Assembly (NCBI GenBank): GCA_017994615.1
Contig: JAGOKM010000001.1
Location: 1-62,579 of the forward strand
Direction: 5' to 3'
From: Bacillota bacterium
GTDB taxonomy: Bacteria; Bacillota; DTU025; MWDF01
Length of the DNA stretch: 62,579 nt
Part shown: one piece after another, positions 1,462 through 29,019 of the stretch
How the letters are laid out: every line of letters begins with the position of its first letter
How positions within the stretch are numbered: position 1 is the stretch's first letter
Position numbers and translations under genes: made by a program
Notes under the pieces: model-generated
The model's input: the letters and a program-made list of their open reading frames with translations, nothing else
What the model was told of the DNA's origin: nothing
Databases searched by the model: none

Positions 1462-2022
1462 ATGGGAAGAGGACCTTGGCGCGCCTTCATATCGCGCTTC
1501 TCTGCCTACGACATGGTGGTCATAGGGCTTATAGCGGCGCTGGGCATCGCGTCGAAGAACATCGTCGGCCCGCTGGCGCACCTTGTGACGGTGCCTATAG
1601 GTGTGCCCGGCGGGTCTCTTGCGGGCGGCTTCTACATGCTGTGGATAGTCCTTGCGAGGGCCTTCACGGGCAAGGCGGGCTCTTCGACGCTTGCAGCTGC
1701 CGTGCAGGCTATCATAGTCATTGCGACGGGCTCCTTCGGGTCCCACGGCGCGCTGACCGTGATAACCTATACTCTGCCTGGGATAGCGTGCGACCTTGCG
1801 ATGATACCGCATAAGAAGGACGGCGAGGGGCGGCTGCTCTGGTGCGCATTAGGCGGGATGGCAGCCAACATCGCCGGGTCCGTCGCGACGAACTATACTT
1901 TTTTCAGGCTGCCGCCACTGGCGCTGGCCTTGACTGCCGTCACCGCCGCGTTCTCGGGGGCGGCAGGCGGGGCCTTTGCAAGCGCGGCGTCTGACAGGCT
2001 GGGCAAGATAATGGGAAGATGA
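1462..2022 (+). CDS. ECF-transporter substrate-capture (S) component-like membrane protein, specificity unknown
   Basis: 186 aa, about 5-6 hydrophobic helices, small Gly/Ala-rich membrane protein directly upstream of EcfA/A'/T genes. Start abuts the nadE stop (TAGATG). Confidence 0.5.
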   Translation: MGRGPWRAFISRFSAYDMVVIGLIAALGIASKNIVGPLAHLVTVPIGVPGGSLAGGFYMLWIVLARAFTGKAGSSTLAAAVQAIIVIATGSFGSHGALTVITYTLPGIACDLAMIPHKKDGEGRLLWCALGGMAANIAGSVATNYTFFRLPPLALALTAVTAAFSGAAGGAFASAASDRLGKIMGR

Positions 2023-2035
2023 CCGGAGGATGGAA

Positions 2036-2551
2036 ATGAAGGGCAAGGACAGGTTAGCAATAGGAATCATCATCATCCTGGGGCTGCTCATGGTGGCCCT
2101 TGGGGCAATAAACTCCTGCGCCACCGAGCAGAAGCTCGAAGGCGACCTGGAAGTCCTCGTAAACGGCGAGAAGGTGGCTGCTTTCACCGCGACGGAGCTC
2201 TCCGCGATGAAATCATCCAGCTTCAAGGCCGTAATAAGGAGCTCCAGCGAGGGCACAAGCGAGGCGGAGTTCACCGGGGTCCCTGTAATGGACATCGTGA
2301 AGAAGGCATACCCTGCTGTCGCCGACGGGTACAAGGCCATAATCGTAAAGGCCGAGGACGGATACCAGACGATACTGGCGAAAGAGGAGGCCGAACTGGC
2401 TGACAACGCCTATATCTGCTACCTGATGAACGGCGCCCCGATAAAACCGAAAGCCCAGAAGGGGCACGGCCCCCTGCGCCTAATAATCCGCAACGATGAA
2501 TTCGGCCAGCGCTGGGTCAAGTACGTAAACAGGATAGAAGTCAAGAAGTGA
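2036..2551 (+). CDS. Membrane-anchored/exported protein with molybdopterin-oxidoreductase-like (Oxidored_molyb-like) domain
   Basis: N-terminal hydrophobic anchor. Motifs FTGVPV..., AEDGYQT, GPLRLII, QRWVKYVNRIEV recur in the proteins at 10439-11407 and 11424-11957. GGAGG lies 6 nt before the ATG at 2036. Stop overlaps the next gene's GTG (GTGA). Confidence 0.5.
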   Translation: MKGKDRLAIGIIIILGLLMVALGAINSCATEQKLEGDLEVLVNGEKVAAFTATELSAMKSSSFKAVIRSSSEGTSEAEFTGVPVMDIVKKAYPAVADGYKAIIVKAEDGYQTILAKEEAELADNAYICYLMNGAPIKPKAQKGHGPLRLIIRNDEFGQRWVKYVNRIEVKK

Positions 2552-3237
2552 AAGCCCTTTCGCTTTCGAAAACACGGTTCAGCTATCAAGGCGCCTTAAA
2601 GCCCGTGCTGGACGGCGTGGACCTGGACATGGAGCCGGGCCAGGCGGTGCAGGTCTCAGGCCCCTCAGGCAGCGGCAAGACCACGTTATGCCTCGTAGCG
2701 TGCGCTATCATCCCCTCCAGGCTGGTAGGCAAGTTCTCCGGAAAGGCCGAGCTGTTCGGGCAGGCGACTGCGAAGCTGGGCCCCTCGGGGGCTTCCGGCT
2801 ATGTAGGGTATGTGATGCAGGACCCGGAATTCTCCATGCTCATGCCCACCGTCGAGGACGAGATCGCCTTCGGCCTTGAGAACAGGGGATGGGAGCCGGA
2901 GAAGATAACCGCAAGGGTCGAAGAGCTCATGGCAGACCTGGGCATGCGGTCCCTTTCGGGGAGGAATCCGCAGAAGCTTTCGGGCGGCGAGAAACAGCTC
3001 GTGGCAATAGCCGCGGCCATCGCCCATCATCCGCCGCTTCTGGTCATGGACGAATCATTCTCGGGCCTGGATGAGGACAAGAGGGAGCTGGTCGTCTTCG
3101 AGCTGGGCCGGATGAAGAAGAACGGCACCGCCATCCTGATGGTGGAGCATCTGGGGATCGGCCGCATCGCCCCCTTCTGGCTTGACAGGAAGCTGTGGCT
3201 GCAGGACGGCTCGCTCACGGAGGCTCAAGGAAGTTGA
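2548..3237 (+). CDS. ECF/ABC transporter ATP-binding protein (EcfA-like)
   Basis: Walker A GPSGSGKTT, signature LSGGEKQ, Walker B LLVMDES. Confidence 0.8.
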   Translation: MKALSLSKTRFSYQGALKPVLDGVDLDMEPGQAVQVSGPSGSGKTTLCLVACAIIPSRLVGKFSGKAELFGQATAKLGPSGASGYVGYVMQDPEFSMLMPTVEDEIAFGLENRGWEPEKITARVEELMADLGMRSLSGRNPQKLSGGEKQLVAIAAAIAHHPPLLVMDESFSGLDEDKRELVVFELGRMKKNGTAILMVEHLGIGRIAPFWLDRKLWLQDGSLTEAQGS

Positions 3238-3911
3238 AGCAGGTTGTCTTCGAATCGGTGGTATTCTCCTACCCGGCGGACAGGGATTTTGCTCCCGCCC
3301 CCAGGGTGTTCGACAGGCTCAGCCTGACGTTGAAGCCGGGTCGCGCGTATGTGCTGCTCGGACCAAACGGATGCGGCAAGAGCACCTTCGCGAAGCTGAT
3401 GGCGGGCATCATATGCCCTGACGAAGGAAGGGTGCTAATCGGGGGGGACGAAGTCAGCAAAATGAGCCTGCCAGAGGTAGGCAGATCGGTCGGCATCGTC
3501 ATGCAGAACCCCTCAAGGCAGCTGATATGCTCCCGTCCTGTTGACGAGGTCGCATTCGGCCTCGTCCAAAGGGGCATGGACAGGGATGCCGCGGGCGCTT
3601 TCGCCGCCGAAGCCCTTGAAAGCTACGGCTTGTCGGAAGCGTCCGGCACATACACCCAGAGGCTGTCCAAGGGAGAGCAGATTAGGCTGGCCATGGCTTC
3701 CTGGACGGTCCTTAAGCCCGACTGGATGATACTGGACGAATCCCTTTCGAGCCTCGATATCTGCTCAAAGGGCATCGTGCTGGGCAAGGTGGCCGAGATG
3801 GCGGCCCAAGGGCACGGTGTCATCGTAGTATCGCATTCAAGTGAGCTTGCAGACGAGATGGGGGCGTTCAAGATAACGATGGAGAAGGGGGGCGCAGCCC
3901 TTGTCGGTTGA
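3234..3911 (+). CDS. ECF/ABC transporter ATP-binding protein (EcfA'-like)
   Basis: Walker A GPNGCGKST, degenerate signature LSKGEQIR, Walker B WMILDES. Likely TTG start overlaps the upstream TGA (the ORF track extends to 3195). Confidence 0.75.
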   Translation: MKQVVFESVVFSYPADRDFAPAPRVFDRLSLTLKPGRAYVLLGPNGCGKSTFAKLMAGIICPDEGRVLIGGDEVSKMSLPEVGRSVGIVMQNPSRQLICSRPVDEVAFGLVQRGMDRDAAGAFAAEALESYGLSEASGTYTQRLSKGEQIRLAMASWTVLKPDWMILDESLSSLDICSKGIVLGKVAEMAAQGHGVIVVSHSSELADEMGAFKITMEKGGAALVG

Positions 3912-4635
3912 GGCGGATCCAAGGTCAAAGCTTTTCGCCGTCTTCTGCCTTACCACGATGGCCCTGCTAATCAGGCAGGGGGAAAGCGCCCTTCTGCTGG
4001 CAGCGTTGACCATAGCCGCGCTCGCCCTATTCGGGGTAAGGCTGTCGGCCCCGTTCAGGATTCTCCGCAAGCTCGTCCCCGCCCTCCTGGTCGTATCGGT
4101 CCTTCAGGTCCTGCTCGTGAAGGCGGGGCGGCCGCTTCTTCTGCTGGGCAGCATTCGGCTGGTCACGACGGGGGGGCTGCAGGCGGCTTTGTTCATGGCG
4201 GCCAGGGTGGGCATAATCGCAAGCTGCGGTTCGATCCTCTACAGCATCGGTTTTTCGGACTTCCTTTTAGCGATGAGGTCCATTAGGGTGCCCTACGAGC
4301 TTGCCTTCATGTCGGCCATGGGGGCGAAATTCCTCCCCCTTCTGGCTGAGGAGATGTCCGACAGCCTGATATCTGCCCAGCTGAGGGGGGCCGACTTGAG
4401 GAGGATGGGATTGGTTCGAAGGCTCAGGCTCTATGTGGACGTCCTCATGCCGGCCACAGTGACAGCCATGTCGAGGGCCGAGGGCATATCATGGGCGCTT
4501 GAGCTGAAGGGCTTCAACCCGGGGAAGCCGAGGACGTACTGGCGCAAGCTGGAGATGGGCATGTCGGACTGGCTGGTCCTGCTGGCCGGGGCAATTGCGT
4601 TTGCCGCCTTCCTTGCAATCAACTACCGGAGGTGA
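3901..4635 (+). CDS. ECF transporter transmembrane (T) component, CbiQ/EcfT family
   Basis: 244-aa polytopic protein following two ECF ATPases. Arg-Gly coupling-helix-like motifs (MRSIRVP, AQLRGADL). Overlaps the upstream stop. Confidence 0.7.
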   Translation: MSVEADPRSKLFAVFCLTTMALLIRQGESALLLAALTIAALALFGVRLSAPFRILRKLVPALLVVSVLQVLLVKAGRPLLLLGSIRLVTTGGLQAALFMAARVGIIASCGSILYSIGFSDFLLAMRSIRVPYELAFMSAMGAKFLPLLAEEMSDSLISAQLRGADLRRMGLVRRLRLYVDVLMPATVTAMSRAEGISWALELKGFNPGKPRTYWRKLEMGMSDWLVLLAGAIAFAAFLAINYRR

Positions 4636-4642
4636 CCGAAAA

Positions 4643-5155
4643 GTGAAGGTGTTTGCCGTATCGGGCCTGCACAGCACGGGCAAGACAACGGTAGTCGAGC
4701 ACCTGGTAAGGGAGTTCGCATCAAGGGGCCTGAAGGTAGGCACCATCAAGGACATACACTACGAGGGGTTCACCATCGACAAAGAGGGCACCAACACCTG
4801 GAGGCATCGGCAGGCCGGTGCATCTGTTGTCGCAGCCAGGGGGCTTGATGAGACCGACGTCATATATGCCGGGAGGATGAGGATGGCAGAACTGGTGGAT
4901 CTCTTCGACGTCGACGTGCTAGTTATCGAAGGAGGCCACGATGAGCCCTATCCGAGGATAACATGCGGCTCAAACGCCGAAGAAGCGGATCTAAGGACCG
5001 ACGGCCACACTTTCGCGTTCTCAGGCGTAATGGGCTCGACGGTCAGATCCTATCGCGGCCTGAGGGCGTTCGATTGCACGTCGGAGGCGGCGGAACTGGC
5101 CGACCTTGCGCTGGTAAGGGCTTTAGCGGTCGACAAGACGGGTGGGCTTAAGTGA
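4643..5155 (+). CDS. mobB: Molybdopterin-guanine dinucleotide biosynthesis adapter protein MobB
   Basis: VFAVSGLHSTGKTT P-loop at the N-terminus, about 170 aa, KDIHYEGF...TNTWRH block typical of MobB. GTG start 7 nt after GGAGGTGA. Confidence 0.75.
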   Translation: MKVFAVSGLHSTGKTTVVEHLVREFASRGLKVGTIKDIHYEGFTIDKEGTNTWRHRQAGASVVAARGLDETDVIYAGRMRMAELVDLFDVDVLVIEGGHDEPYPRITCGSNAEEADLRTDGHTFAFSGVMGSTVRSYRGLRAFDCTSEAAELADLALVRALAVDKTGGLK

Positions 5156-6574: not shown

Positions 6575-7837
6575 TCACTGCCTTATCCCAAGGGCTTCGA
6601 GCATTTTGGCGAACAGCTCGCTGTTGTCATAACGCCCCGCGAAAATGGAAGAGCCGGGGCCTTCCGCGGTCACAAGCACGTTGGAAGCCGTGTGCCCTCC
6701 GCTGCCCCAGGCTATGTTGGCCTTCCGGGAGATCAACGCGCCGATGGACCTAGCCCAGTCGCTGGAGCTTCTGATCGACTCGGCCTCTTCTTCGGACATC
6801 TCGTACCCTGTTGAGGCCTTTACTATCGAAACCAGAGAGGCAGGTTTATCCTCAGCGAGCCAGGCCATCTTCATAGAACTTGACTTCACCCTCGCGAGGA
6901 AGGGCACGTCGATCCTGTATCCCTGGTTGGCGCCGAGGGACAGGCCGCCAGTCTCGTGGTCGGACACGACCAGTACCAGGGTATCGCCGTCCTTGCGGGC
7001 GAATTCCAGGGCCTTTGCGACGCCCATGTCGGCGGCGATTACGCCCTTTAAGGCGGCAGCTGCGTCGTTGTCGTGAGAAGCCCCGTCCACGCTGCCCGTC
7101 TCGGCAAGGAGGATGAAGGGTCTACCCTTTCCGGAAAGCTTGTCCAGCGCCGCTGATATGATGTCGACGAATGCTGCGGCATTGCTTCCGGCGTCTATCT
7201 CCATTTGAAGATATGCGTCATCTAGAAGGCAGATAGCCGGCAGTCCGCCGGAAGCCAGGGACTTCAGGTCATAGTAGGCGTTGAAGCGTGGCTTCGAATC
7301 GGCGGACAGCATGGACTGCTGGATGAGCGGGTCGACATAGCGGGCCCCTCCGCCTATCGCAAGGTCGAGGCTAGATGACATGAGCTGCTTTGCGATGTTC
7401 CTGTATTCCGCCCTGGTAAGGGAGTTTGCGTACATCGCCGCCGATGTCGCGTCGTACAGCTCCGAATTGGTAGCGATGCCGCACGAGAATCCGGCCTTGG
7501 ATGCGATGTCCATGACGCTTTCTAGCTTGTTCAGGTCGTGGTCGTACCCGATCGCCGCATTGTAGGTCCGCTTACCCGTGAACATGGCGGTCGCTGCCGC
7601 CGCCGAATCTGTGATATCGGAACCGTAGCTGGACGTATCCATCATCCCCAGGTGACTCATGCGGTTCATCGAAAGGCCGCCCTTCACAGCAAGCTCTCCG
7701 AGCTGCCTGTGCGCAGGGCCCATGCCGTCCACGACGATTATTATGAGGTTTCTTGCTAGCCCTTGAGCAGATGCAAGCGGAAAAGCTGCCATCAGCAGCA
7801 GGATGGCTGCGGCAAGCCTGACATGTCTGTTCTTCAT
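6575..7837 (-). CDS. phoA: Alkaline phosphatase (PhoA family), exported
   Basis: Signal peptide; VVDGMG, nucleophile box TDSAAAATAMFTGKRTYNAAIG, SDHETGGL, GGHTASNV. Confidence 0.85.
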   Translation of the reverse strand: MKNRHVRLAAAILLLMAAFPLASAQGLARNLIIIVVDGMGPAHRQLGELAVKGGLSMNRMSHLGMMDTSSYGSDITDSAAAATAMFTGKRTYNAAIGYDHDLNKLESVMDIASKAGFSCGIATNSELYDATSAAMYANSLTRAEYRNIAKQLMSSSLDLAIGGGARYVDPLIQQSMLSADSKPRFNAYYDLKSLASGGLPAICLLDDAYLQMEIDAGSNAAAFVDIISAALDKLSGKGRPFILLAETGSVDGASHDNDAAAALKGVIAADMGVAKALEFARKDGDTLVLVVSDHETGGLSLGANQGYRIDVPFLARVKSSSMKMAWLAEDKPASLVSIVKASTGYEMSEEEAESIRSSSDWARSIGALISRKANIAWGSGGHTASNVLVTAEGPGSSIFAGRYDNSELFAKMLEALGIRQ

Positions 7838-7931: not shown

Positions 7932-8951
7932 ATGTCTTTCAAGGTCATTTTGAAAAGGGCCACGATTGCGGCCTTGGCGTTGGTCCTCTCGACGCTGGCC
8001 CTCGTTTCGGCCCAGGCGCCGCCCCCTTACCACGACGTGCGGCCCGGCTACGGGGTGACCCGCATAGGCTGGCTATCCGATTACTGCCCGGGGCTTAGGG
8101 GGACGCCCGGCGACACGATGGTCTATTACTTGGAAAGCGGCGTGCCCGGCATGGACGTACTGGTGCTCGGCGGCACGCACGCCAACGAGATATCGGGGAT
8201 ACTGGCTGCGACGCTGCTCGTAGAACGGTCAGAAGTGAAGGCCGGAAGGCTTATAGTCATACCCCACGCGAACAACAGCGCGTCGATGGCGCCCGATTCA
8301 AGGGGCGGCTTGAAACTCGAGCATGTCACGATAGGTTCGCTCTCGGCGCCCAGGGTGTTCAAGTACGGCGACAGGTACACAAGCGAGGCCGACCAGCCCG
8401 ACTACAAGTCCGACCCGCTCGGCATAGAAGCCAGGAACCTCAACAGGGTTTACCCAGGCAAGTCGGACGGGACCATGACGGAGAAGATCGCATTCGGGAT
8501 CATGGAGATATTGAGGGCCGAGGGCATAGATACTGCCATCGACCTGCATGAGGCCAACCCCAAAAGCAGCCTCGGTTGGACTATCATATCTCCCAACGAG
8601 ACCCTGGACATCGCAGTCCTTTCGGCATTCGAGCTGGAAGAGAAGGGAATCAGGATGAGCCCCGACAGGAGCGGCGCGGGCTTTGCCGGCTACAGCCACT
8701 GGGAATGGAGCAGGATGGGGACTGCCGCATTCCTTCTCGAGACGGTGAACCCGGGCATGGAGGCCGGATTGAAGCTGGATCCGATCGTGAGCGCGGAATT
8801 TCCTATCGAAAGGCGCGTCGGAACACACCTCGAGACGATATTGACCCTGCTTAAGTACTCGGTTGAGCTGGGCGGGGCCCCTTTTGCGATAGAAGGTGTT
8901 CCGAGCTACAAGGCGCTGATGCAGAATGGGATATCGAGCTACCTGAGGTAA
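7932..8951 (+). CDS. Exported M14-like zinc hydrolase (succinylglutamate desuccinylase/aspartoacylase-type)
   Basis: Signal peptide; Zn-ligand motif GGTHANEISG (HxxE) and downstream IDLHE. Confidence 0.6.
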   Translation: MSFKVILKRATIAALALVLSTLALVSAQAPPPYHDVRPGYGVTRIGWLSDYCPGLRGTPGDTMVYYLESGVPGMDVLVLGGTHANEISGILAATLLVERSEVKAGRLIVIPHANNSASMAPDSRGGLKLEHVTIGSLSAPRVFKYGDRYTSEADQPDYKSDPLGIEARNLNRVYPGKSDGTMTEKIAFGIMEILRAEGIDTAIDLHEANPKSSLGWTIISPNETLDIAVLSAFELEEKGIRMSPDRSGAGFAGYSHWEWSRMGTAAFLLETVNPGMEAGLKLDPIVSAEFPIERRVGTHLETILTLLKYSVELGGAPFAIEGVPSYKALMQNGISSYLR

Positions 8952-9038: not shown

Positions 9039-10205
9039 TCAATAGAGCTTGTCGAGCTTCATGACGACCCTCTCGGCGAACCTGAGGGCCTTGTCGAGGG
9101 TGTCCCTGTCCATCTTGTCGAAAGTGTCAGAGGGCATGTGCCAATGGGGCGCGAAGCCATCGCGCTCGAGGCCTATGAGCGTGATGGCCGGGATGCCGTT
9201 TATTATCGAATCGCTCGCTTCGGTGCATCCCCCTGTAAGGCTTGAAGGATATACCTCGAAGTCCATCTCCCTGCCCACGCCTTCGACCAGCTCCAGGAGC
9301 TTCCTGTCGGGGCGCAGCGGAAGGAGCAGCCCTTCCCTGGCGATGTATGACGGCCCCGCGCAGCCGAGCATCTCGAAGTTCACGGTGACAGGGTCAACGA
9401 ATTCCTTCTTGTGGCGCTTGAAGAAATCCACGGCCCCCTCGTGCAGAGATTCCTCGCTTCCGGAGCAGACCAGCCAGACCCGAGTGCCCTCCAGCGGCGC
9501 CTTCTTCAGCAGCTCCGCGAAGGTCAGGACCAGCCCTGCGCCTGTCGCGTTGTCGTTTGCGCCCCTTGTGAACGGGGTGGAGTCTGCCTCTATCGTTATG
9601 GCGATGAGGGACATTGCGGCAAGCAGCGAGATAAACGTCACGTTCCAGATAAGCCTCGAATGCGCAGGCCAGATGAGGGCTGCGCCGAACAGCACAGTCT
9701 GCAGCACCAGCAGGCCCATCGCCACGTTCGACCACACGGCGTACACCTTGCGCCATCTCTTTGACGAGAAGATCATGGGTGTCCTCTGGGTGTCCATATG
9801 CCCCATGAGGATCAGGTCCCTCCTGTGGTTTCCGAACGGTTCCGATTTGGCGAACACATTGCGGCTGAGGTTCTTCGCCCCGAACAGCCTCAGAAGGTTC
9901 GGGCGCAAGAGGAGCTCCTGCACTTCGGAGATGAGCGCGATGAGGGATACGACGAATGCGGTGCCCGGCATCTTCGGGAAGATGGCATAAGCGGTGGAGA
10001 AAGCCACGGCGGCTATAAGGTGGGGCCTGAACACTGACGACTGGCTTATGAACTTCTCGACCGTGGGCTCATAGCCCATAGCCTTGAACTCGCCCTCGCA
10101 GTATTCCGCCGCCTTCTGCTCGTCGACGGTGCCGCTGCCCCTGGCGCCTATCGTCACCGACAGCTGTTCAATATGCCTGAGCCAGGTTCCGACCTTGTTG
10201 TCCAT
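9039..10205 (-). CDS. M28 family metallopeptidase with inserted transmembrane segments
   Basis: MGHMDTQ, NDNATGAGLVL, CSGSEESLHEGA, HWHMPSDT metal-ligand boxes, with hydrophobic helices between the first boxes. ATG at 10205 is preceded by AAGGAGG at 9 nt (the ORF track extends to 10253). Confidence 0.75.
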   Translation of the reverse strand: MDNKVGTWLRHIEQLSVTIGARGSGTVDEQKAAEYCEGEFKAMGYEPTVEKFISQSSVFRPHLIAAVAFSTAYAIFPKMPGTAFVVSLIALISEVQELLLRPNLLRLFGAKNLSRNVFAKSEPFGNHRRDLILMGHMDTQRTPMIFSSKRWRKVYAVWSNVAMGLLVLQTVLFGAALIWPAHSRLIWNVTFISLLAAMSLIAITIEADSTPFTRGANDNATGAGLVLTFAELLKKAPLEGTRVWLVCSGSEESLHEGAVDFFKRHKKEFVDPVTVNFEMLGCAGPSYIAREGLLLPLRPDRKLLELVEGVGREMDFEVYPSSLTGGCTEASDSIINGIPAITLIGLERDGFAPHWHMPSDTFDKMDRDTLDKALRFAERVVMKLDKLY

Positions 10206-10231
10206 AAAAGGGGCCTCCTTCGTCATAAAGG

Positions 10232-10261
10232 TTGTAAAGACATTATCGCACAATGTATCAT
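10232..10261 (+). promoter_or_regulatory. Possible sigma70 promoter for the structured leader
   Basis: TTGTAA (10232-10237), 18-nt spacer, TATCAT (10256-10261). Confidence 0.3.
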
Positions 10262-10274
10262 CGTTTGTAGATAA

Positions 10275-10374
10275 CCGCGCTCCGAGCCGGAAGGCCTAAA
10301 GCACACAGCCAGGGTCCCCGGCCGACAGGGCCAAGGTGGAAACGCCTTGACCTCCCTTTTGGAAAGGATGGCGG
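10275..10374 (+). promoter_or_regulatory. Candidate Moco/Tuco (molybdenum/tungsten cofactor) riboswitch aptamer
   Basis: Blocks CUCCGAGCC (10280-10288), CCUCCC (10351-10356) and GGAAAGG (10361-10367). GAAA-capped hairpin AAGGUG/CGCCUU (10333-10348). Closing helix 10275-10283 with 10366-10374. Downstream genes encode Moco-domain-like proteins. Called from memory of the motif, not from a covariance-model search. Confidence 0.55.
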
Positions 10375-10389
10375 CAACCGGCCTTTTTT

Positions 10390-10425
10390 GCCGTGCCCTT
10401 CCTGAAGGGCACGGCATTTCATTTC
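10390..10425 (+). terminator. Leader terminator (expression platform of the candidate riboswitch)
   Basis: Perfect 11-bp stem GCCGTGCCCTT/AAGGGCACGGC, 4-nt loop, then ATTTCATTTC. It lies immediately before the RBS AGGAGG (10426-10431). The 5' arm can alternatively pair with 10361-10375. Confidence 0.65.
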
Positions 10426-10438
10426 AGGAGGCATGCAG

Positions 10439-11407
10439 ATGAATCCAAGGGTCCGGATGAATCCCGCTTTGCTTGGCGCTACGATCGCCCTCGTACTCGT
10501 CCTGGCGTTACCCGCAGTGACGCACGCCGCGGGGGCTGTAATCAAGCTCACCGACAGGCTTGGCACGTCCCAGTCGGTCGACCTGCTGTCCTTGCCCCAG
10601 CTGGACTACAAGGCGTCCTACAAGCGCTCGACCGGGGCTATAGTTGGGCCGTTCAGCTACAGGGGGCCTTCGCTGCTCTCGGTCCTGGCGCTCATGGGCG
10701 GGATGAACGAGAACGACGCGGTGCAGCTAATCTCCGAGGACGGATACAGGATGAGCCTCACTTACGGACAGGTCCATGGGGAGGTCACCGTCTACGACGG
10801 GAAGGGCGAAGCCATGGAGGATTTCGAAAGGCCGATTCTCATCCTTGCGGTTTCATCCGACAGCCCCGCATTCGAACAGGAGGGGGTAAGGGCGGTATTT
10901 GCCGGCCCGAAGGCGCCCCTGACCGACGGGCACACTTGGGTCAAGTGGATCGTCGAGGTCAAGGTGATCCCCATGGTTAAGGAATGGGAGCTGGAGCTGG
11001 AGGGGGTGGTCAAAGCGAAGATGGACAGGTCGACCTTCGAAAGCCTGGCCACATGCCCGCTCTCCCCGCACCCCGGAGCCGACTGGGGCGCGACCGACGG
11101 GACATATGCGGGGGTCCCGCTTTGGACGCTGGTGTCCGTCGTAGACAACGTGGAGCCGGAGAACTCCCATTACACATACGACAGGGCGCTTGCCGCCTCG
11201 GGATATACCGTAAGGGTGACGTCCAAGGACGGAACATACGTCGATTTCGACTCGAAGGACCTCATTTTCGAATCGGGGGTCTTCGTAGCTTTCACAAAGG
11301 ACGGGAAGCTCATCGGGGAGGAAGACGGGCCGCTGGTGCTCACAGGGCCCAGATCCCCCAGGACTCTCAGGAATGTCGTATCGATAAAGCTCATAGGCGT
11401 TAAATAG
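10439..11407 (+). CDS. Exported protein with two tandem molybdopterin-oxidoreductase-like domains
   Basis: Sec-type signal peptide (...ALPAVTHAAGA). Two copies of the F/Y-x-G-P...xDGY...GPL...W/R-x-V-x-I-K pattern (SEDGYRM...HTWVKWIVEVKV; SKDGTYV...GPLVLTG...LRNVVSIKL). ATG at 10439 lies 7 nt after AGGAGG. Confidence 0.5.
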   Translation: MNPRVRMNPALLGATIALVLVLALPAVTHAAGAVIKLTDRLGTSQSVDLLSLPQLDYKASYKRSTGAIVGPFSYRGPSLLSVLALMGGMNENDAVQLISEDGYRMSLTYGQVHGEVTVYDGKGEAMEDFERPILILAVSSDSPAFEQEGVRAVFAGPKAPLTDGHTWVKWIVEVKVIPMVKEWELELEGVVKAKMDRSTFESLATCPLSPHPGADWGATDGTYAGVPLWTLVSVVDNVEPENSHYTYDRALAASGYTVRVTSKDGTYVDFDSKDLIFESGVFVAFTKDGKLIGEEDGPLVLTGPRSPRTLRNVVSIKLIGVK

Positions 11408-11423
11408 GACGGAGGGAAGATCC

Positions 11424-11957
11424 ATGTCGAAGAGAAGGTACATAGCGCTTGCAGCAATGCTCGTAATCGTAATCGCCGCCACGGCCGCCTCGGCGGAGGG
11501 CCTGGCGGTAAGGCTCGTCAAAGGGGACGCAGCCCCCTTGACAGTGGAGCTGGAGAAGCTCGAAAAAGTAGAGGGCGTCGCCTATTACAGGAACTCCAAG
11601 GGTGTTGTCTCGGGCCCGTTCAAGATAAAGGGGGTCAAGCTGGCCGACCTGCTGAAGCTGGCAGGGGGCATGACGGCGGAGGAGAAGCTCATCTTCACGG
11701 CCTCGGACGGCTACGTGACCGAGCTCAGCTTCGCGCAGGCCAACGGGGAGCTTGCGGCCTCCAGGCCGGACGGAGCCGCCTTCGAAGGCAAACCGGCGCT
11801 GGTGCCCGTTATAATCACATGGTCCGAGCCTGACATGGCGAAGGACCTGCCGAGGCTCGCCTTCATCGCCGATGTGGAGGGAGGCCTCATGACGGAGAGC
11901 AAATACTGGGCGAGGAACCTGGTGGAGATCAGGATAGCCCCCGCCGACAGGAAGTAA
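11424..11957 (+). CDS. Exported single-domain molybdopterin-oxidoreductase-like protein
   Basis: Signal peptide with KRRYIAL; FKIKGVKLADLL, ASDGYVT, KYWARNLVEIRI motifs paralogous to 2036-2551 and 10439-11407. No Cys residue. Confidence 0.5.
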   Translation: MSKRRYIALAAMLVIVIAATAASAEGLAVRLVKGDAAPLTVELEKLEKVEGVAYYRNSKGVVSGPFKIKGVKLADLLKLAGGMTAEEKLIFTASDGYVTELSFAQANGELAASRPDGAAFEGKPALVPVIITWSEPDMAKDLPRLAFIADVEGGLMTESKYWARNLVEIRIAPADRK

Positions 11958-12095
11958 GGGGCCGCGGGACAATCAGGAAGGGGCGCTTGATTAGGCGCCC
12001 CTTCGTTACATACCTGTCCAATAAAGGATATAATCAGATTAAGAGAGATGAAGGAGTGCCGCCGGCAAGCCGGCGGTTGCAACGGAGGTGCCCAG

Positions 12096-13811
12096 ATGGC
12101 GGATGTCCTCCGCATTTCGATAATACAGACGCAGGCCTACGACATGCTCAGCCCGCACCACGCGGACAACGAGATGTTCTACATGCTCGAGATGGAAAGG
12201 GATTTCAAGCCCGACATAGTGCTGCTGCCCGAGTGCGTATGGCCCGGCTATTTCCTTCACGGCTGGGACTATTCCATGCAGGAGAAGGCCGACGACGTGA
12301 AAGCGCGCCTCGCCTCCACCGCAAGGAAGATGGGCTGCTTCATAGTCGCAGGCCTTCCCGAACCAGACAAGAGCGGGCCGACGGCGCAGATGCTGCCCTT
12401 CATGGAGGGCTGGATGCAGCCGGCAGCAAGCCCAATCTACAATGCGGCACTCGCCTGGAACAAGGCTGGCAGGCTCGTAGCCTCGGGCAGGAAGATAAAC
12501 CTCTGGCACTTCGACGGTAAATGGTTCAAGAAGGGCGAAGGACCGGTCGTCTTCAGGACCAAATGGGGTAATATTGGCCTTATGGTATGCGCCGACGCCA
12601 GGATGCCCGGCATAGTGGAGAAGCTGGCCGAGGACGGCGCAAGGCTCGTCTTGAACTGCACAAACTGGGTCACATCGGGCCCCGACAGGTCGAAGCTGAC
12701 CAACCCGCAGGCAGACTACCTTATAAGGGTGAGGGCCGTCGAGAACAACCTCTGGATCGCCTCCGCCAACAAGGTGGGGCTGGAAGACGGGCTTATCGCG
12801 TTCTGCGGGGGCTCCCAGCTGGTCGCCCCTGACGGGACGCTCGTGAAGAGGGCGTCGGCCGACAAGGTCGAGGCGATCAGGGCCGAGATCCCGCTGGACG
12901 AACAGGGAAGGATAGAGCTTCCCGAGCCTAAGATAGTAAGGCTGAGCAACCCTGCATTCTACGAATCTGCGTCAGGGCTTACCGACGAAGGGGGGAATGG
13001 CACCCCCGAGCCTGATGGAGGAAGGATACAGGGTTTCCCGCAGAAGCCGTCGCACCCTTATGTAGCGGTGGTGCAGCAGTCCCCGGAATCTGCCGGACAG
13101 CCGGGCACAGGGCTTGTCGCCAGGGCCGCCATGAAGAGGCTGGCTGCCAAGATAGATGCCCTCGGCGCGGACATAGTCGTGTTTTCAGGGACCTTCGAAG
13201 CCATGACGGGGCTGGACCCGCAGGCGAGGGCGCTGCTTGACGAGCCCACTATGAGGGGTAAGATGCTCGTCATACCCCGCGGCAGGTGCGAGAAGTGCGG
13301 CAACCCTATTGGAGGGGCCGACGTGGTGTTCGACGGAAAGTCGCTGCAGCAGTACGGCGCCCTGACCGTGCGCGAGGGGACGAGGGGCTGCCCCAACTGC
13401 GGATTCGGGGATTCGGTGGCGACTGCGCCCGTAGTGCAGACGCCGTTCGGCCCTCTGGGGCTGGTGTTGGGCAGGGAGGGCCACGAGCACAGGATGGTGG
13501 CGAGCTTGTCAGGCATGGGCGTCAGGATGTTCGCGTGGATAACGTCGGGCTTAGTGCCGGAACATGACATAATCACGAGGGCCAGGGCCATGGAGAGCAG
13601 GGTATGGATGATAACGGCCAACCCGGCTATGATGATAGCCAGGCAGCCGGGCCTAAGGGCTCTTTCGGGCCTTAGCCTTATCGCCGAGCCTGACGGGAGG
13701 GTGGCCTGTTCGGCGTTCCCCGACGAGGAGCAGATAGTTGCGGCATACTGCGACCTGTGCCTCTGCGAGAGGAGGGACGTAGTCCCCGGCACCCTGGCAA
13801 TGGGCCGATGA
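12096..13811 (+). CDS. Fused double carbon-nitrogen hydrolase (nitrilase superfamily) protein; second domain degenerate with zinc ribbon
   Basis: Domain 1 has the E-K-C triad contexts LLPECVWPGY, GRKINLWHF, LMVCADARMPG. Domain 2 has DIVVFSG and LVLGREG in place of the Glu and Cys boxes, plus a CEKC...CPNC insert. ATG at 12096 follows GGAGGTG. Confidence 0.65.
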   Translation: MADVLRISIIQTQAYDMLSPHHADNEMFYMLEMERDFKPDIVLLPECVWPGYFLHGWDYSMQEKADDVKARLASTARKMGCFIVAGLPEPDKSGPTAQMLPFMEGWMQPAASPIYNAALAWNKAGRLVASGRKINLWHFDGKWFKKGEGPVVFRTKWGNIGLMVCADARMPGIVEKLAEDGARLVLNCTNWVTSGPDRSKLTNPQADYLIRVRAVENNLWIASANKVGLEDGLIAFCGGSQLVAPDGTLVKRASADKVEAIRAEIPLDEQGRIELPEPKIVRLSNPAFYESASGLTDEGGNGTPEPDGGRIQGFPQKPSHPYVAVVQQSPESAGQPGTGLVARAAMKRLAAKIDALGADIVVFSGTFEAMTGLDPQARALLDEPTMRGKMLVIPRGRCEKCGNPIGGADVVFDGKSLQQYGALTVREGTRGCPNCGFGDSVATAPVVQTPFGPLGLVLGREGHEHRMVASLSGMGVRMFAWITSGLVPEHDIITRARAMESRVWMITANPAMMIARQPGLRALSGLSLIAEPDGRVACSAFPDEEQIVAAYCDLCLCERRDVVPGTLAMGR

Positions 13812-13828
13812 TTGGGAAGGTGTTTAAT

Positions 13829-14755
13829 ATGAGGAAAGGCTGGGCGATCCTTGCGCTGTTGTTCATAGTGGTCCTTCAGGCAACGGGGATGGAGGGCTGC
13901 AAAGCCGCGCCTAAGCCGAAGGTGGTGGCCCTAAACGGCGTGACCGGACTGGGGCTCGCCCTTCTGTTCGAATCTGGCGACTACGAAATCGAAGTCGGCA
14001 AATCCGCGGACGTCGCCGTGGCGAGGCTCACTTCGGACGGGGCGGAGATCGCCGCTCTTCCCGTATCCACGGCAGCCCTGTTGAGGAACAAGGGCGTCCC
14101 CATAAGAATCGCAGCCGTGACCAATTACGGCTCCCTTTACGTCGTATCAAGGGCTGAAGGAGGGCTCCTGCAGAGCGCTTCCTCCTACCTTGGCGTGCCC
14201 GGCAAGGGAACCATGCCCGACGTCACCCTTGCCATCCTGCTTGCAGAGTACAAATCGGCCTCCTCAGGCGTGCAGCACCATTCTTCGCCGGTGGAGCTGG
14301 CAAACCTCCTTCTAGCTGGCAAGGCGCAGGCGGCGCTTCTGCCGGAGCCGTGGGTTAGCCAGGTCCTGGCCAAGGACGCGGGGCTTAGGATCACATCTGA
14401 CATACAGGCCGAATGGAGGGCGAAGTTCGGCTTCGACTACCCGCTCAGCTGCGTTGTGGTCACGGAGAAGTTCGCCGACGAGAGGCCCGATGCCCTAAAG
14501 AAGCTGCTTTCGGACATAGAGAAGAGCGTAGACTGGGTGAAGTCGAACCCTGGCAAGGCGGCGGCCATGGCTGCCGAAAAGCTGTCGATGGATCCGGCCG
14601 CCACAGAAAAGGCCGTCCCGAGGTGCAACTTCGCCTACCTGGACGGGCCTGCGGCGAAAGCGGCATCTTCCCAGTTCTACAGCAAAGTGCTGCAATATGC
14701 TCCGACGATGATCGGGGGGAAGCTTCCGGATGAGGCGTTCTACCTGGACAATTAG
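13829..14755 (+). CDS. ABC transporter substrate-binding lipoprotein (NMT1/NitT-TauT-like)
   Basis: Lipoprotein-like signal (…ATGMEGC), periplasmic binding-protein-like sequence, followed by a matching permease and ATPase. Confidence 0.6.
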   Translation: MRKGWAILALLFIVVLQATGMEGCKAAPKPKVVALNGVTGLGLALLFESGDYEIEVGKSADVAVARLTSDGAEIAALPVSTAALLRNKGVPIRIAAVTNYGSLYVVSRAEGGLLQSASSYLGVPGKGTMPDVTLAILLAEYKSASSGVQHHSSPVELANLLLAGKAQAALLPEPWVSQVLAKDAGLRITSDIQAEWRAKFGFDYPLSCVVVTEKFADERPDALKKLLSDIEKSVDWVKSNPGKAAAMAAEKLSMDPAATEKAVPRCNFAYLDGPAAKAASSQFYSKVLQYAPTMIGGKLPDEAFYLDN

Positions 14756-15509
14756 CCTCTTTTCGGCCATCGGCCTGGCAAGCCTGGCCATCGCATGGTG
14801 GGCGGGTTCTGTATTGCTGGGCAACAGCCTTCTGCTGCCTACCCCTTCAGAGACCATATCGGCGCTGTCGGGCATAGTATCCGACCCCGGTTTCGCAGGA
14901 GAGCTCTTAGCGACCGCATACAGGGTGTTCAAGGGGTTCGCCCTGTCATTCCTGCTGGGATCTGCGGCCGGCGCCGCCTGCGGCTTCTCATGGAAGGCCA
15001 AGGCGTTGCTTTCCCCAGCCCTTGCCGCATTGAGGACCGTCCCCTTCATTTCGCTTTCCATACTGGCGATCATCTGGTTCCCGTCGGGGACGGTGCCGGT
15101 GTTCGTCGCTTTCCTGATGGCGTTCCCGATCGTGGCGTCCAGCGTGATGGAAGGCATCGGATCTGTTGATACGGATCTGGAAGAGCTCTCCTCGGTATAT
15201 TCGGTGCCCTTTTCGAAAAGGGCTTACAGGCTGTACCTTCCGTCCGTGATGCCATATGTGGTTTCGGCGGCATCGCAGTCTCTGGGCATGTCCTGGAAGA
15301 TTGTGGTCTCAGCCGAGGTGCTTTCGATGCCGGCAAGGGGTATAGGCGGCAGGATGGATTCCGCGAAGGCGTTCCTCGAGATGCCGGAGCTGTTCGCATG
15401 GACGCTGCTGCTGGTGGCGCTGGGTTTCGCGACAGACGCCCTGCTGGAGGCGATTAGGGCGAGGGCCTTCGGCTGGAGGGAGGGCCGGCTATGGCAGAGG
15501 TTAAGGTAA
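14730..15509 (+). CDS. ABC transporter permease (NitT/TauT family)
   Basis: 259-aa polytopic protein with an EAA-like loop (LEELSSVYSVPFSKRAYRLYLP). Confidence 0.7.
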   Translation: MRRSTWTISLFSAIGLASLAIAWWAGSVLLGNSLLLPTPSETISALSGIVSDPGFAGELLATAYRVFKGFALSFLLGSAAGAACGFSWKAKALLSPALAALRTVPFISLSILAIIWFPSGTVPVFVAFLMAFPIVASSVMEGIGSVDTDLEELSSVYSVPFSKRAYRLYLPSVMPYVVSAASQSLGMSWKIVVSAEVLSMPARGIGGRMDSAKAFLEMPELFAWTLLLVALGFATDALLEAIRARAFGWREGRLWQRLR

Positions 15510-16225
15510 CCGGCCTGTGCAAATCATACGAAGGCAGGCCTGTCTTCTCAGGGGTGGACATGACTTTCCTGCAAGGGGAAGTCACAGCCGTCCTTGGGCC
15601 ATCAGGGAGGGGCAAGACGACGCTCATAAGGGTGCTTTGCGGCCTTGAAAAGCAGGATTCGGGGGAGGTAAGGATGCCGCCCGGCATGGGATGCTCGGTG
15701 GCATTCCAGGAGCCCAGGCTGCTGCCATGGCTCACAGTCGACGGGAACATGGAGTATTGCCTGGGCAGACATGGTGCCGACAGGGCCCGCGCCTTGCTTG
15801 ACGAGCTGGGCCTGAAGGACTCGTTCGGAAGGTACCCCGGACGACTGTCGGGGGGAGAGCAGCAGAGGGTCAACCTGGCCCGCGCGCTCGCATCGGACGG
15901 CAAGCTGCTCCTTCTAGACGAATCGTTCAACTCCATAGGCCTGGCCATGAAATCGTGGCTGCTTCCCATGCTCAGGAAGAGGGCATCATCAGAAGGAAGG
16001 ACGACGGTCCTGGTAACGCACAGCCCGCTTGACGTGGCGCTGATGGCCGACAGGTTCTACCTGATGGACAGCGAGGGGCGAGGGGCCTCGGGTCCGTTCG
16101 ACATAAGGCTGGAGGACGATGCGCGAAGGCTCGAAGATGAGGCCACCGGCAGGGAGGTCCACAGGCTGATGATGCTCATGTCTGAGCTGGAAACAGGAGG
16201 TATCACTGATGATGCCCTCGCCTGA
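15491..16225 (+). CDS. ABC transporter ATP-binding protein (NitT/TauT family)
   Basis: Walker A GPSGRGKTT, signature LSGGEQQR, Walker B LLLLDES. Confidence 0.8.
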   Translation: MAEVKVTGLCKSYEGRPVFSGVDMTFLQGEVTAVLGPSGRGKTTLIRVLCGLEKQDSGEVRMPPGMGCSVAFQEPRLLPWLTVDGNMEYCLGRHGADRARALLDELGLKDSFGRYPGRLSGGEQQRVNLARALASDGKLLLLDESFNSIGLAMKSWLLPMLRKRASSEGRTTVLVTHSPLDVALMADRFYLMDSEGRGASGPFDIRLEDDARRLEDEATGREVHRLMMLMSELETGGITDDALA

Positions 16226-16904
16226 GAGCAGGTTCGGAAGGGAAGAGCTGCTGATAGGAAGCGCCGGGCTAAAAAGGCTCGCCTCCTCGCATGTGGCCGT
16301 CTTCGGAATAGGAGGCGTGGGTTCCTTCTGTGCGGAAGCCCTGGCGAGGGCCGGCGTGGGAGAGCTCACGCTGGTCGATTCGGACGCCGTCCGGCTCAGC
16401 AACGCCAACAGGCAGCTCGTGGCCCTCGAAAGCACCATGGGGGCCCCCAAGGTGGAGGTCATGGCAAGGCGGGCGCTTGACATAAACCCTTCGCTCAAGG
16501 TCCATGCAGTGCAGGAGTGGTTTGACGAAGCAAATTCCGAAAGGATGCTTTCGACGGATTACGACTATGTCGCGGACGCGATAGACAGCGTATCCTCCAA
16601 ACTGCTGCTGATAGCCTCGTGCATTGGAAAGGGCATCCCGGTCGTATCTTCGATGGGGGCGGGCAACAAGCTTGACGCGACAGGGTTCAGGATAGCGGAC
16701 ATCTCGGATACCCACACTTGCCCGCTTGCCAAGGTCGTGAGGACGGGCCTCAGGAAACGTGGGATAGAAAAGGGGCTCAAGGTGGTCTTCTCTGTATCGA
16801 AGCCGGTGGATAGGCCTGCAGGCCCTCCCGGCAGCATATCCTATGTGCCTCCCGTAGCGGGGCTCCTCCTGGCGCAGGCGGTCATCGAAGGCCTGCTGGG
16901 CTAG
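16209..16904 (+). CDS. tcdA: tRNA threonylcarbamoyladenosine dehydratase (ThiF/E1-like)
   Basis: RFGREELLIG...VAVFGIGGVGS dinucleotide-binding motif, about 230 aa, TcdA/CsdL-like. Confidence 0.7.
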   Translation: MMPSPESRFGREELLIGSAGLKRLASSHVAVFGIGGVGSFCAEALARAGVGELTLVDSDAVRLSNANRQLVALESTMGAPKVEVMARRALDINPSLKVHAVQEWFDEANSERMLSTDYDYVADAIDSVSSKLLLIASCIGKGIPVVSSMGAGNKLDATGFRIADISDTHTCPLAKVVRTGLRKRGIEKGLKVVFSVSKPVDRPAGPPGSISYVPPVAGLLLAQAVIEGLLG

Positions 16905-23277: not shown

Positions 23278-23417
23278 CCAGCATTCCTCCAGAGCCGCTG
23301 TGCAGGATAAGCACCGGCGGCAAAGAATATTACCAAGTAAGAGTCTACCTATAACATATTACGTCAAAAAACCGTAAAACCTTCCAACTCGGATGGAAAA
23401 AAGCCGGAGGCTTGCAA

Positions 23418-25310: not shown

Positions 25311-25377
25311 GATTGTCTTGAACAAAGGTTTATAAGGGACGTCAGATAAGTAGGCCATCAAGATTGGGGGTCATCCT

Positions 25378-27413: not shown

Positions 27414-27488
27414 GCGGATGTAGCCCAGTGGTAGGGCAATGGCTTCCCAAGCCATGTGTCGCGGGTTCGAATCCCGTCATCCGCTCCA
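27414..27488 (+). tRNA. tRNA-Gly (anticodon CCC)
   Basis: 75-nt cloverleaf folded by hand: acceptor GCGGATG/CATCCGC, D arm GCCC/GGGC, anticodon stem ATGGC/GCCAT with loop TTCCCAA, T arm GCGGG-TTCGAAT-CCCGT, encoded CCA. Confidence 0.9.
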
Positions 27489-28944: not shown

Positions 28945-29019
28945 GCCGGTGTAGCTCAGTGGTAGAGCAGCGCATTCGTAATGCGCGGGTCGCGGGTTCA
29001 ACTCCCATCACCGGCTCCA
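28945..29019 (+). tRNA. tRNA-Thr (anticodon CGT)
   Basis: 75-nt cloverleaf: acceptor GCCGGTG/CACCGGC, D arm GCTC/GAGC, anticodon stem GCGCA/TGCGC with loop TTCGTAA, T arm GCGGG-TTCAACT-CCCAT (one C-A mismatch), encoded CCA. Confidence 0.88.

Follow-up and report, generated by a model that had tools for sequence, protein, structure and literature searches.

A P3-less member of the Moco/Tuco riboswitch family, very likely a transcriptional OFF switch, precedes genes for secreted PruR-like proteins in a Bacillota genome

The riboswitches for thiamin pyrophosphate (TPP), flavin mononucleotide (FMN), B12, tetrahydrofolate (THF) and preQ1 each have among their targets importers of the cofactor they sense or of its precursors, and dedicated energy-coupling factor (ECF) transporters of the YkoEDC type stand under cofactor riboswitches, as does the TPP-controlled ykoEDC of B. 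subtilis. The present work concerns an RNA leader of another cofactor-sensing family, the Moco RNA motif (Rfam RF01055, Molybdenum/Tungsten riboswitch aptamer), located on the plus strand of a 62.6-kb window, by which we mean the whole stretch of 62,579 nt analysed from the Bacillota contig JAGOKM010000001.1. The leader lies between a divergent M28 peptidase gene and an open reading frame (ORF) at position 10439, and an earlier annotation of the bare letters, hereafter the sequence-only reading, had marked it as a candidate riboswitch for the molybdenum cofactor (Moco) or tungsten cofactor (Tuco). Positions 10268-10425 are very likely the 5' leader of a two-gene operon (10439-11957), in which a P3-less RF01055 aptamer and an intrinsic terminator together form a transcriptional OFF switch.

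The RF01055 family is divided by the presence of helix P3, which 58 of the 176 original examples lack (Regulski et al. 2008, PMC2408646), and the P3-less RNAs track Tuco metabolism (PMC2408646). A 2024 study of Eubacterium limosum used the absence of P3 as the criterion for Tuco riboswitches, and found two operons behind P3-less terminator-type RF01055 elements to be up-regulated under tungsten limitation; those elements, ahead of fetABC1 and focA, control Fe ABC (ATP-binding cassette)-type transporters and a FocA-like channel (PMC11725836). The Moco riboswitch of E. coli moaA has P3, responds to Moco and not to Tuco, and acts on translation, its ribosome-binding site (RBS) being sequestered within P1 with no terminator/antiterminator platform. 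For the proteins encoded downstream of our leader, the closest known relative is PruR (7kos, 7kom, 7kp2, 7rkb), which partners the cyclic di-GMP enzyme DcpA in Proteobacteria (PMC11194511, PMC13259868), and whose fold, a truncated one with no Mo-ligating cysteine, binds small pterins (PMC13259868).

An Rfam scan of the entire window, on both strands and with all 4227 families, yielded an untruncated RF01055 match at 10268-10385 (+) covering model positions 1-135, with 55.8 bits against a gathering score of 36 and an E-value of 1.1e-10. This full-length covariance model (CM) match bears out the candidate assignment: the window RNA is a genuine member of RF01055 and, as an RNA element, an ordinary one. 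The landmarks named in the sequence-only reading were all present, namely CUCCGAG (10280-10286), CCUCCC (10351-10356), GGAAAGG (10361-10367) and a GNRA-capped hairpin (10328-10353, with a GAAA loop). The closing helix that had been drawn between 10275-10283 and 10366-10374, with 4 bp, a 2x2 internal loop and 3 bp, has a calculated energy of -9.1 kcal/mol. The leader as a whole folds with a z-score of -3.1. Its features are as follows, all on the plus strand.

10232..10261, +: sigma-70-like promoter from a consensus scan, with -35 TTGTAA (10232-10237), an 18-nt spacer and -10 TATCAT (10256-10261)
~10268, +: predicted transcription start, from the promoter at 10232-10261
10268..10385, +: P3-less RF01055 aptamer (cmscan)
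10275..10283, +: 5' strand of P1, CCGCGCUCC, partner of 10366-10374; in the minimum-free-energy (MFE) fold of transcripts ending at 10376 or 10388
10286..10322, +: P2 helix with the tetraloop-receptor bulge (Rfam alignment)
10328..10353, +: P4 helix, with a GAAA tetraloop at 10339-10342 (Rfam alignment)
10351..10367, +: invariant core of CCUCCC, the P5 mini-helix and GGAAAGG, the same in all 21 aligned aptamers
10361..10375, +: switching segment (3' strand of P1 plus GGAAAGG), predicted to pair with 10275-10283 as P1 or with 10390-10403 as antiterminator (constrained and staged folding)
10389..10416, +: intrinsic-terminator hairpin of 12 bp with a CCUG loop (terminator scan; -23.4 kcal/mol)
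10417..10425, +: U-rich tail UUUCAUUUC, read from the sequence and weaker than the tails of the orthologues
10426..10431, +: RBS AGGAGG, 7 nt ahead of the ATG at 10439

The element shares with the described motif (PMC2408646) its CM score, the CUCCGAG/CCUCCC/GGAAAGG core, helices P1, P2, P4 and P5, the GAAA tetraloop on P4, and a site in the 5' leader of genes related to Mo/W-pterins. It differs in belonging to the P3-less minority subclass, in its degenerate tetraloop receptor, and in targets that are not the classical moa, mod, tup or enzyme genes. The P3 positions of the model are deleted in the Rfam alignment, the spacer between P2 and P4 consisting only of the 5 nt CGACA (10323-10327), so that the architecture is of the Tuco type.

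A promoter of the form TTGTA(A/T)-17/18-TAT(C/G)AT lies at the same distance from the aptamer in loci L005-L010 and L001, where L-numbers denote 37 loci with relatives of the first controlled gene (gene 1), collected in a scan of species-representative genomes (Bacillota metagenome-assembled genomes (MAGs) and several archaeal lineages). Since this conserved promoter ends about 7 nt before the aptamer, the RF01055 element constitutes the very 5' end of the mRNA, placed between the promoter and the RBS of an operon whose products are SUOX/PruR-like and not canonical targets of the family. The distance from the peptidase gene to the ORF had been given as 227 nt; it is about 233 nt if the M28 gene begins at the ATG at 10205, ahead of which an RBS AGGAGG occupies 10214-10219 on the minus strand. 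The ATG at 10433 was rejected as the start of gene 1, being too near the RBS, and the record in the protein collection is the 322-aa form from 10439.

The analysis shows that the RNA belongs to the family, that its helices covary, that aptamer and gene have stayed linked, and that the alternative pairings exist with the energies given. RF01055 matches of 62-85 bits and 115-123 nt lie a short way 5' of the orthologous gene, on its strand, in L005-L010, L012-L024, L042, L046 and L001; the aptamer is thus present in every Bacillota locus among L005-L024 with complete upstream sequence, and L011 has a match of 37.3 bits truncated at the contig end. Given their lengths of 115-123 nt, all the related aptamers are P3-less, among them those of all 20 examined Bacillota loci that have a full-length match. 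No RF01055 match was found upstream in the archaeal loci or in the Bacillota loci L029 and L038.

Compensatory changes in the orthologous leaders, which the sequence-only reading expected of a real element, are abundant. RNAalifold, applied to a MAFFT alignment of 21 aptamers, recovered P1, P2, P4 and P5 as the consensus, with double compensatory changes in 13 of the 22 consensus pairs, including all 5 outer P2 pairs and 7 of the 10 P4 pairs. Standard pairs occupied 96.3% of the cells, against 78.6% in shuffles, none of which (0/500) reached the observed value, and the covariation score was 0.536, against at most 0.173 for all six slid registers. Covariation is strong in P2 and P4. In P5 and inner P1 the pairs never vary and carry no covariation information for that reason, while the outer part of P1, left unaligned by MAFFT, is kept by differing sequences in each lineage (UUUUCUCC/GGAGAAAG in L022 and L046; ACUGCUCC/GGAGUAGG in L024). 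CUCCGAG, CCUCCC and GGAAAGG are invariant over the 21 related aptamers, and every invariant core nucleotide is intact in the window.

In the platform that follows the aptamer, the perfect 11-bp hairpin at 10390-10415 noticed earlier, 15 nt 3' of the closing helix, was found and extends to 12 bp with the pair U10389-A10416 (-23.4 kcal/mol), and the resulting hairpin at 10389-10416 satisfies the terminator scan. It was considered and rejected as a terminator of the M28 gene, because that gene is divergent and its 5' end faces the leader. Pairing between the 5' arm of the hairpin and the 3' strand of the closing helix, as had been proposed, is available in two registers (10361-10375 with 10390-10402; -12.4 and -13.1 kcal/mol). 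When the MFE fold of the window leader was computed at growing transcript lengths (staged folding), the two structures competed as anticipated, here and in most orthologues:

Transcript end 10376 or 10388: the MFE fold is exactly the Rfam aptamer, including P1 (10275-10283 with 10366-10374)
Transcript end 10403 or 10410, by which point the 5' but not the 3' arm of the terminator has been transcribed: P1 gives way to pairing of 10361-10375 with 10390-10403
Transcript end 10425: aptamer, P1 and terminator, -66.7 kcal/mol

When the transcript ends at 10403, the fold with P1 enforced reaches -48.2 kcal/mol, as opposed to -50.5 kcal/mol for the antiterminator fold; base-pair probabilities sum to 7.66 over the antiterminator and to 0.31 over P1. 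This is the behaviour of a classical kinetic OFF switch. The staged switch is complete in L007, L008, L009 and L022; in 7 of the 10 orthologues tested, L022 among them, the intermediate stage shows 11 or more antiterminator pairs. The terminator arms GCCGUGCC...GGCACGGC are conserved in L005-L010, the clade of the window, with variable loops and spacers. In L022 and L046 the terminator sequence is unrelated (GCCCGUUCUGCUUUCCGCAG...), and its CUUUCCGC is again complementary to the GCGGAAAG of the aptamer.

These results are consistent with the following mechanism. Transcription would begin at about 10268 from the conserved promoter, and the aptamer (P1, P2, P4 and P5) would fold first. With the cofactor bound, most likely Tuco, P1 (10275-10283 with 10366-10374) would stay shut, the 12-bp terminator at 10389-10416 would form and transcription would end ahead of the RBS. 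With no ligand, the nascent 5' arm of the terminator (10390-10403) would invade P1 through 10361-10375, and the antiterminator so formed would delay the terminator and allow the polymerase to read through. A few kcal/mol of ligand stabilisation of P1 would be enough to block this invasion, so that the terminator is formed in time. The two secreted proteins with PruR/SUOX-like pterin-binding domains would then be made only under scarcity of the cofactor. The direction of regulation in vivo, like the identity of the ligand and the function of the proteins, we infer. The E. limosum elements ahead of fetABC1 and focA share with this leader the P3-less aptamer, a hairpin with a U-tract, the reading as a transcriptional OFF switch and a Clostridia-class host, whereas the genes behind the window element encode secreted PruR/SUOX-like proteins; with the E. 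coli moaA riboswitch, the leader has the aptamer family and the OFF logic in common.

Several observations count against this reading. Staged MFE folding gave no antiterminator in L046 and L014. A second test, comparing the antiterminator duplex with shuffled arms, was marginal in several loci including the window (fraction 0.13); we regard the staged MFE test as the more informative of the two. The U-tract following the hairpin is weak, with 5 U in 9 nt, and the poorest among the orthologues of the clade. Once the leader is complete, the terminator fold is the most stable one whether or not ligand is bound, and the switch must therefore be kinetic. The window aptamer has the lowest Rfam score in its family of 22 related aptamers (55.8 against 62-85 bits). 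Finally, the GAAA tetraloop on P4 is present, but the P2 receptor is degenerate, with CCUAAA at 10295-10300 and CAGG at 10310-10313: the canonical form is CCUAAG and UAUGG, the orthologues have CCUAA(G/A)...(U/C)A(U/A)GG, and the 1-nt deletion that turns UAUGG into CAGG occurs, among the aligned relatives, in the window only. The degeneracy of this receptor probably explains the family-lowest score.

Such a low score, together with the receptor deletion and the weakest U-tract, is what a decaying, non-functional riboswitch copy in this genome might show. We consider decay very improbable, as all invariant core nucleotides are intact, every helix pairs and the staged switch of the window is as clean as that of any orthologue; moreover, some natural Moco RNAs with a GAAA tetraloop, albeit rarely, also lack the receptor (PMC2408646).

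Control could instead be mainly translational, with CCUCC at 10351-10355 or neighbouring sequence sequestering the Shine-Dalgarno (SD) sequence GGAGG at 10427-10431 and the hairpin at 10389-10416 serving as a mere spacer. The unconstrained MFE fold of 10268-10432 does contain this pairing, at -71.7 kcal/mol against -70.7 kcal/mol with P1 enforced, and many RF01055 members act on translation, including E. coli moaA and E. limosum wor1 and tupABC (PMC2408646, PMC11725836). But SD sequestration of this kind would block translation when the aptamer is unfolded, that is, ligand-free, which is the wrong polarity for genes induced by cofactor scarcity, and the CCUCC-SD pairing is on that account regarded as probably incidental, although it could add a translational layer. 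The hairpin, for its part, satisfies the criteria for a terminator, its arms are conserved and followed by better U-tracts in the orthologues, and its 5' arm is specifically complementary to the 3' strand of P1. An essentially translational switch is thus unlikely, and the transcriptional OFF switch remains the preferred reading.

The ligand of this switch is most likely the tungsten form, Tuco, judging by the P3-less architecture. The same family and mechanism could nevertheless serve Moco, or either metal form, if the absence of P3 does not set specificity, an alternative that we hold possible but distinctly the less favoured. The preference of P3-less aptamers for Tuco over Moco is a literature correlation and not measured binding (PMC2408646), drawn from gene associations in 17 of 19 organisms, with exceptions noted, and the E. 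coli RNA showed no switch in specificity once P3 was deleted (PMC2408646). Protein-family searches of the window detected no tup, wtp or AOR/tungsten-enzyme genes; among the Mo/W enzymes and the tup, mod and moa genes sought there, only MobB and a ThiF-family protein turned up, so that the window has MobB and no tungsten-specific gene. Against the alternative, all 21 related aptamers lack P3, and their sources are anaerobic Clostridia and syntrophs, the kind of organisms in which P3-less RNAs have been linked to tungsten use (PMC2408646, PMC11725836).

The genes following the leader, and the signals that appear to delimit them, are as follows.

10439..11407, +: gene 1, a 322-aa secreted protein with two PruR/SUOX-like domains (signal-peptide-like N-terminus, AlphaFold2 model, Foldseek)
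11424..11957, +: gene 2, encoding a secreted protein of 177 aa with one domain, a paralogue of the N-domain of gene 1 (signal-peptide-like segment, BLASTP)
11977..12004, +: strong 12-bp hairpin (GAAGGGGCGCUU...AGGCGCCCCUUC) with no proper U-tract, after gene 2; probable operon end
12005-12034: promoter-like site GTTACA-18-TATAAT with a 10/12 consensus match, directly after the hairpin at 11977-12004

The hairpin and the promoter-like site indicate that the riboswitch probably governs genes 1 and 2 only. After the promoter-like site, 12048-16904 encodes a 587-aa protein with a CN_hydrolase domain, an SsuA/NMT1-like ABC transporter and a ThiF-family protein.

The controlled products had been described as Moco-domain-like, which held in substance, through the fold search and the PF00174 matches of homologues, but neither protein has a Pfam match of its own and the resemblance is to truncated PruR-type domains rather than to Moco enzymes. 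At default thresholds, genes 1 and 2 matched no Pfam or NCBIfam family; with E-values up to 10, the sole relevant Pfam match was PF00174 to gene 2 (E 0.25). Relatives of gene 1 form only 19 clusters in a collection of 5.8 billion proteins, all without names. BLASTP aligned gene 2 with the N-terminal half of gene 1 at 27% identity (E 1e-17). The AlphaFold2 model of gene 1 (predicted local distance difference test 83.8, predicted template-modelling score 0.73) gave two best groups of Foldseek matches in the PDB: PruR (7kp2, 7kom, 7kos and, with neopterin, 7rkb; E 4e-5 to 9e-3, the top ones at 4e-5 to 1e-3 with a target template-modelling score of ~0.62), and the Moco domain of the sulfite dehydrogenase SorA and of SoxCD. 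A profile of the N-domains, including gene 2, likewise reached PruR 7kom (E 0.035) in the PDB; TALE repeat proteins returned by an N-domain profile search were rejected as artefacts of summed low-scoring repeats. PDB searches with profiles of the full-length family and of the C-domain gave 0 matches each, and phmmer searches with single controlled proteins gave noise only, plus SorA at E ~1. A homologue in L042, about 40% identical to gene 1, matches PF00174 (Oxidored_molyb) with 36 bits, above the gathering score.

The domains are about 140 aa long and best resemble a truncated PruR. The N-domains have no cysteine in the segment of the expected Mo-ligand position, whereas Cys206 and His211 of the C-domain are invariant; when both domain profiles were compared with E. 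coli MsrP by hhalign, the alignment covered the last beta-strand only and did not place the Mo-ligating cysteine. Like PruR, the domains are small, secreted and of the SUOX fold (~140-170 aa), with 10-18% identity to it. They differ from PruR in occurring in Bacillota and Archaea, in sitting behind a cofactor riboswitch here, and in their settings: single or tandem domains, fusions with a metallophosphoesterase or with an ECF S-component, and proteins anchored by SLH repeats.

In more distant Bacillota (L011, L014-L018, L020-L022, L042 and L046), the riboswitch operon, which opens with the two-domain PruR-like protein, continues with four more genes. The first encodes a metallophosphoesterase with a C-terminal copy of the PruR-like domain, the next an ECF S-component (PF09819) that is joined in one protein, by an additional transmembrane segment, to a PF00174-like domain, and the last two a double ABC ATPase and a CbiQ-type T-component. 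The operon spans 5001-11014 in L042 and 5001-10715 in L046; in L012 and L019 it is visible only into the phosphoesterase gene, where the contigs end. The link between riboswitch and ECF operon is found in at least 11 Bacillota loci. Two archaeal loci, L033 (372-5509, uncultured archaeon) and L040 (67-4121, Thermoplasmatota MAG), have the PruR-like protein, Metallophos, S-component fusion and ATPase genes with no riboswitch. In L024 (1798-5169, Peptococcaceae, 1123 aa) and L029 (1792-4413, Moorellaceae, 873 aa), the PruR-like domain lies within proteins that also carry PF00174 and three SLH repeats, with a CARDB domain in the L024 protein as well; given the SLH repeats, both would be displayed on the cell surface. 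The L024 riboswitch lies about 430 nt upstream of the first gene of this SLH-protein cluster.

The window itself has a split ECF cluster (1462-5155), about 6 kb upstream of the riboswitch and directly after nadE (697-1461):

1462-2022: ECF S-component, PF09819
2030-2551: membrane-anchored protein with a PF00174 Oxidored_molyb-like domain (47.8 bits)
2548-3911: EcfA and EcfA'
3901-4635: EcfT, CbiQ-type
4595-5155: MobB

This cluster is distantly paralogous (~27-29% identity) to the ECF operon that the riboswitch controls in the relatives, and a permissive search upstream of it for a second riboswitch found no Rfam family, even at E-values up to 1. The operons of L042, L046 and others share with transporters of the YkoEDC type the PF09819 S-component, the fused double ABC ATPase, the CbiQ-type T-component and a coenzyme-sensing riboswitch. 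They differ in the riboswitch, which is RF01055, and in the S-component, which has the extra transmembrane segment and an extracytoplasmic PF00174-like domain. In the window, unlike in YkoEDC-type systems, the riboswitch controls soluble binding proteins only, and the ECF genes (1462-4635) lie about 6 kb away with no riboswitch.

Because the ECF or ABC importers controlled by other coenzyme riboswitches carry the sensed ligand itself or its precursors, scavenging of a pyranopterin or pterin is suggested by analogy. We tentatively propose, as one possible interpretation among others, that the riboswitch marks a hitherto undescribed extracytoplasmic system that scavenges and takes up a pyranopterin cofactor, or else a precursor or breakdown product of pterin type. 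Secreted or surface-anchored PruR-like domains would capture the compound, the metallophosphoesterase fused to such a domain would trim it, and a YkoE-like ECF transporter whose S-component bears the same domain would import it. In the lineage of the window, the binding proteins would have stayed under riboswitch control, and the split ECF copy lies 6 kb off beside mobB. Gene context and fold suggest this role; the PruR-like and ECF genes may instead serve the handling of tungstate or molybdate, or have an extracytoplasmic enzymatic role.

The RNA adds to the P3-less Moco/Tuco riboswitches a confidently assigned member whose terminator/antiterminator platform is unusually easy to read, which makes it a convenient model for term-seq and reporter tests of tungsten-cofactor sensing. 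Its wider interest lies in the conserved link to secreted pterin-binding-like proteins of an uncharacterised family, together with a dedicated ECF transporter. Coenzyme uptake figures as a category for B12, thiamin, riboflavin, queuosine and folate in a comparative survey of riboswitch regulons, which has no such entry for Moco/Tuco (PMC3766115), and according to a 2026 review pterin transport systems are not known (PMC13259868). Our literature search returned nothing relevant linking ECF transporters to Moco/Tuco, nor a known Moco importer, and the riboswitch-ECF association appears to be undescribed. If the scavenging proposal is true, the system would be the first candidate route for salvage of Moco/Tuco, or of molybdopterin (MPT) or cyclic pyranopterin monophosphate (cPMP), in prokaryotes; the riboswitch-ECF link provides a concrete, testable importer candidate and a functional handle on the uncharacterised protein family.

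Further observations concern the surroundings of these operons. In L046 (Gelria sp. Kuro-4), an FMN riboswitch (3724-3880, 83.6 bits) followed by a gene for a PF12822 ECF S-component lies immediately upstream of the Tuco-type operon, so that two cofactor riboswitch-ECF units stand side by side. A TwoAYGGAY RNA (RF01731, 49.5 bits against a gathering score of 43) occurs on the opposite strand just upstream of the riboswitch in L019 (2222-2379, -) and L042 (4324-4481, -), from Thermoanaerobacterales / DTU068. Loci of ANME and Methanosarcinales (L025-L031 and L034) contain arrays of the PruR-like domain with Metallophos genes.

In the window, the riboswitch is preceded by genes for a secreted alkaline phosphatase (6575-7837, -), an AstE/AspA-like deacylase (7932-8951, +) and the M28 peptidase (9039-10205, -), and in all close relatives (L001, L003) these three keep their synteny with the riboswitch operon. 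The alkaline phosphatase could be the functional counterpart of the Metallophos fusion of the other lineages. Farther downstream, two tRNA genes (27414-27485 and 28945-29016; 73.5 and 65.2 bits) flank an esterase-like ORF, and upstream of them, at 23412-27279, lie two adjacent subtilase (Peptidase_S8) genes of about 630 aa each.

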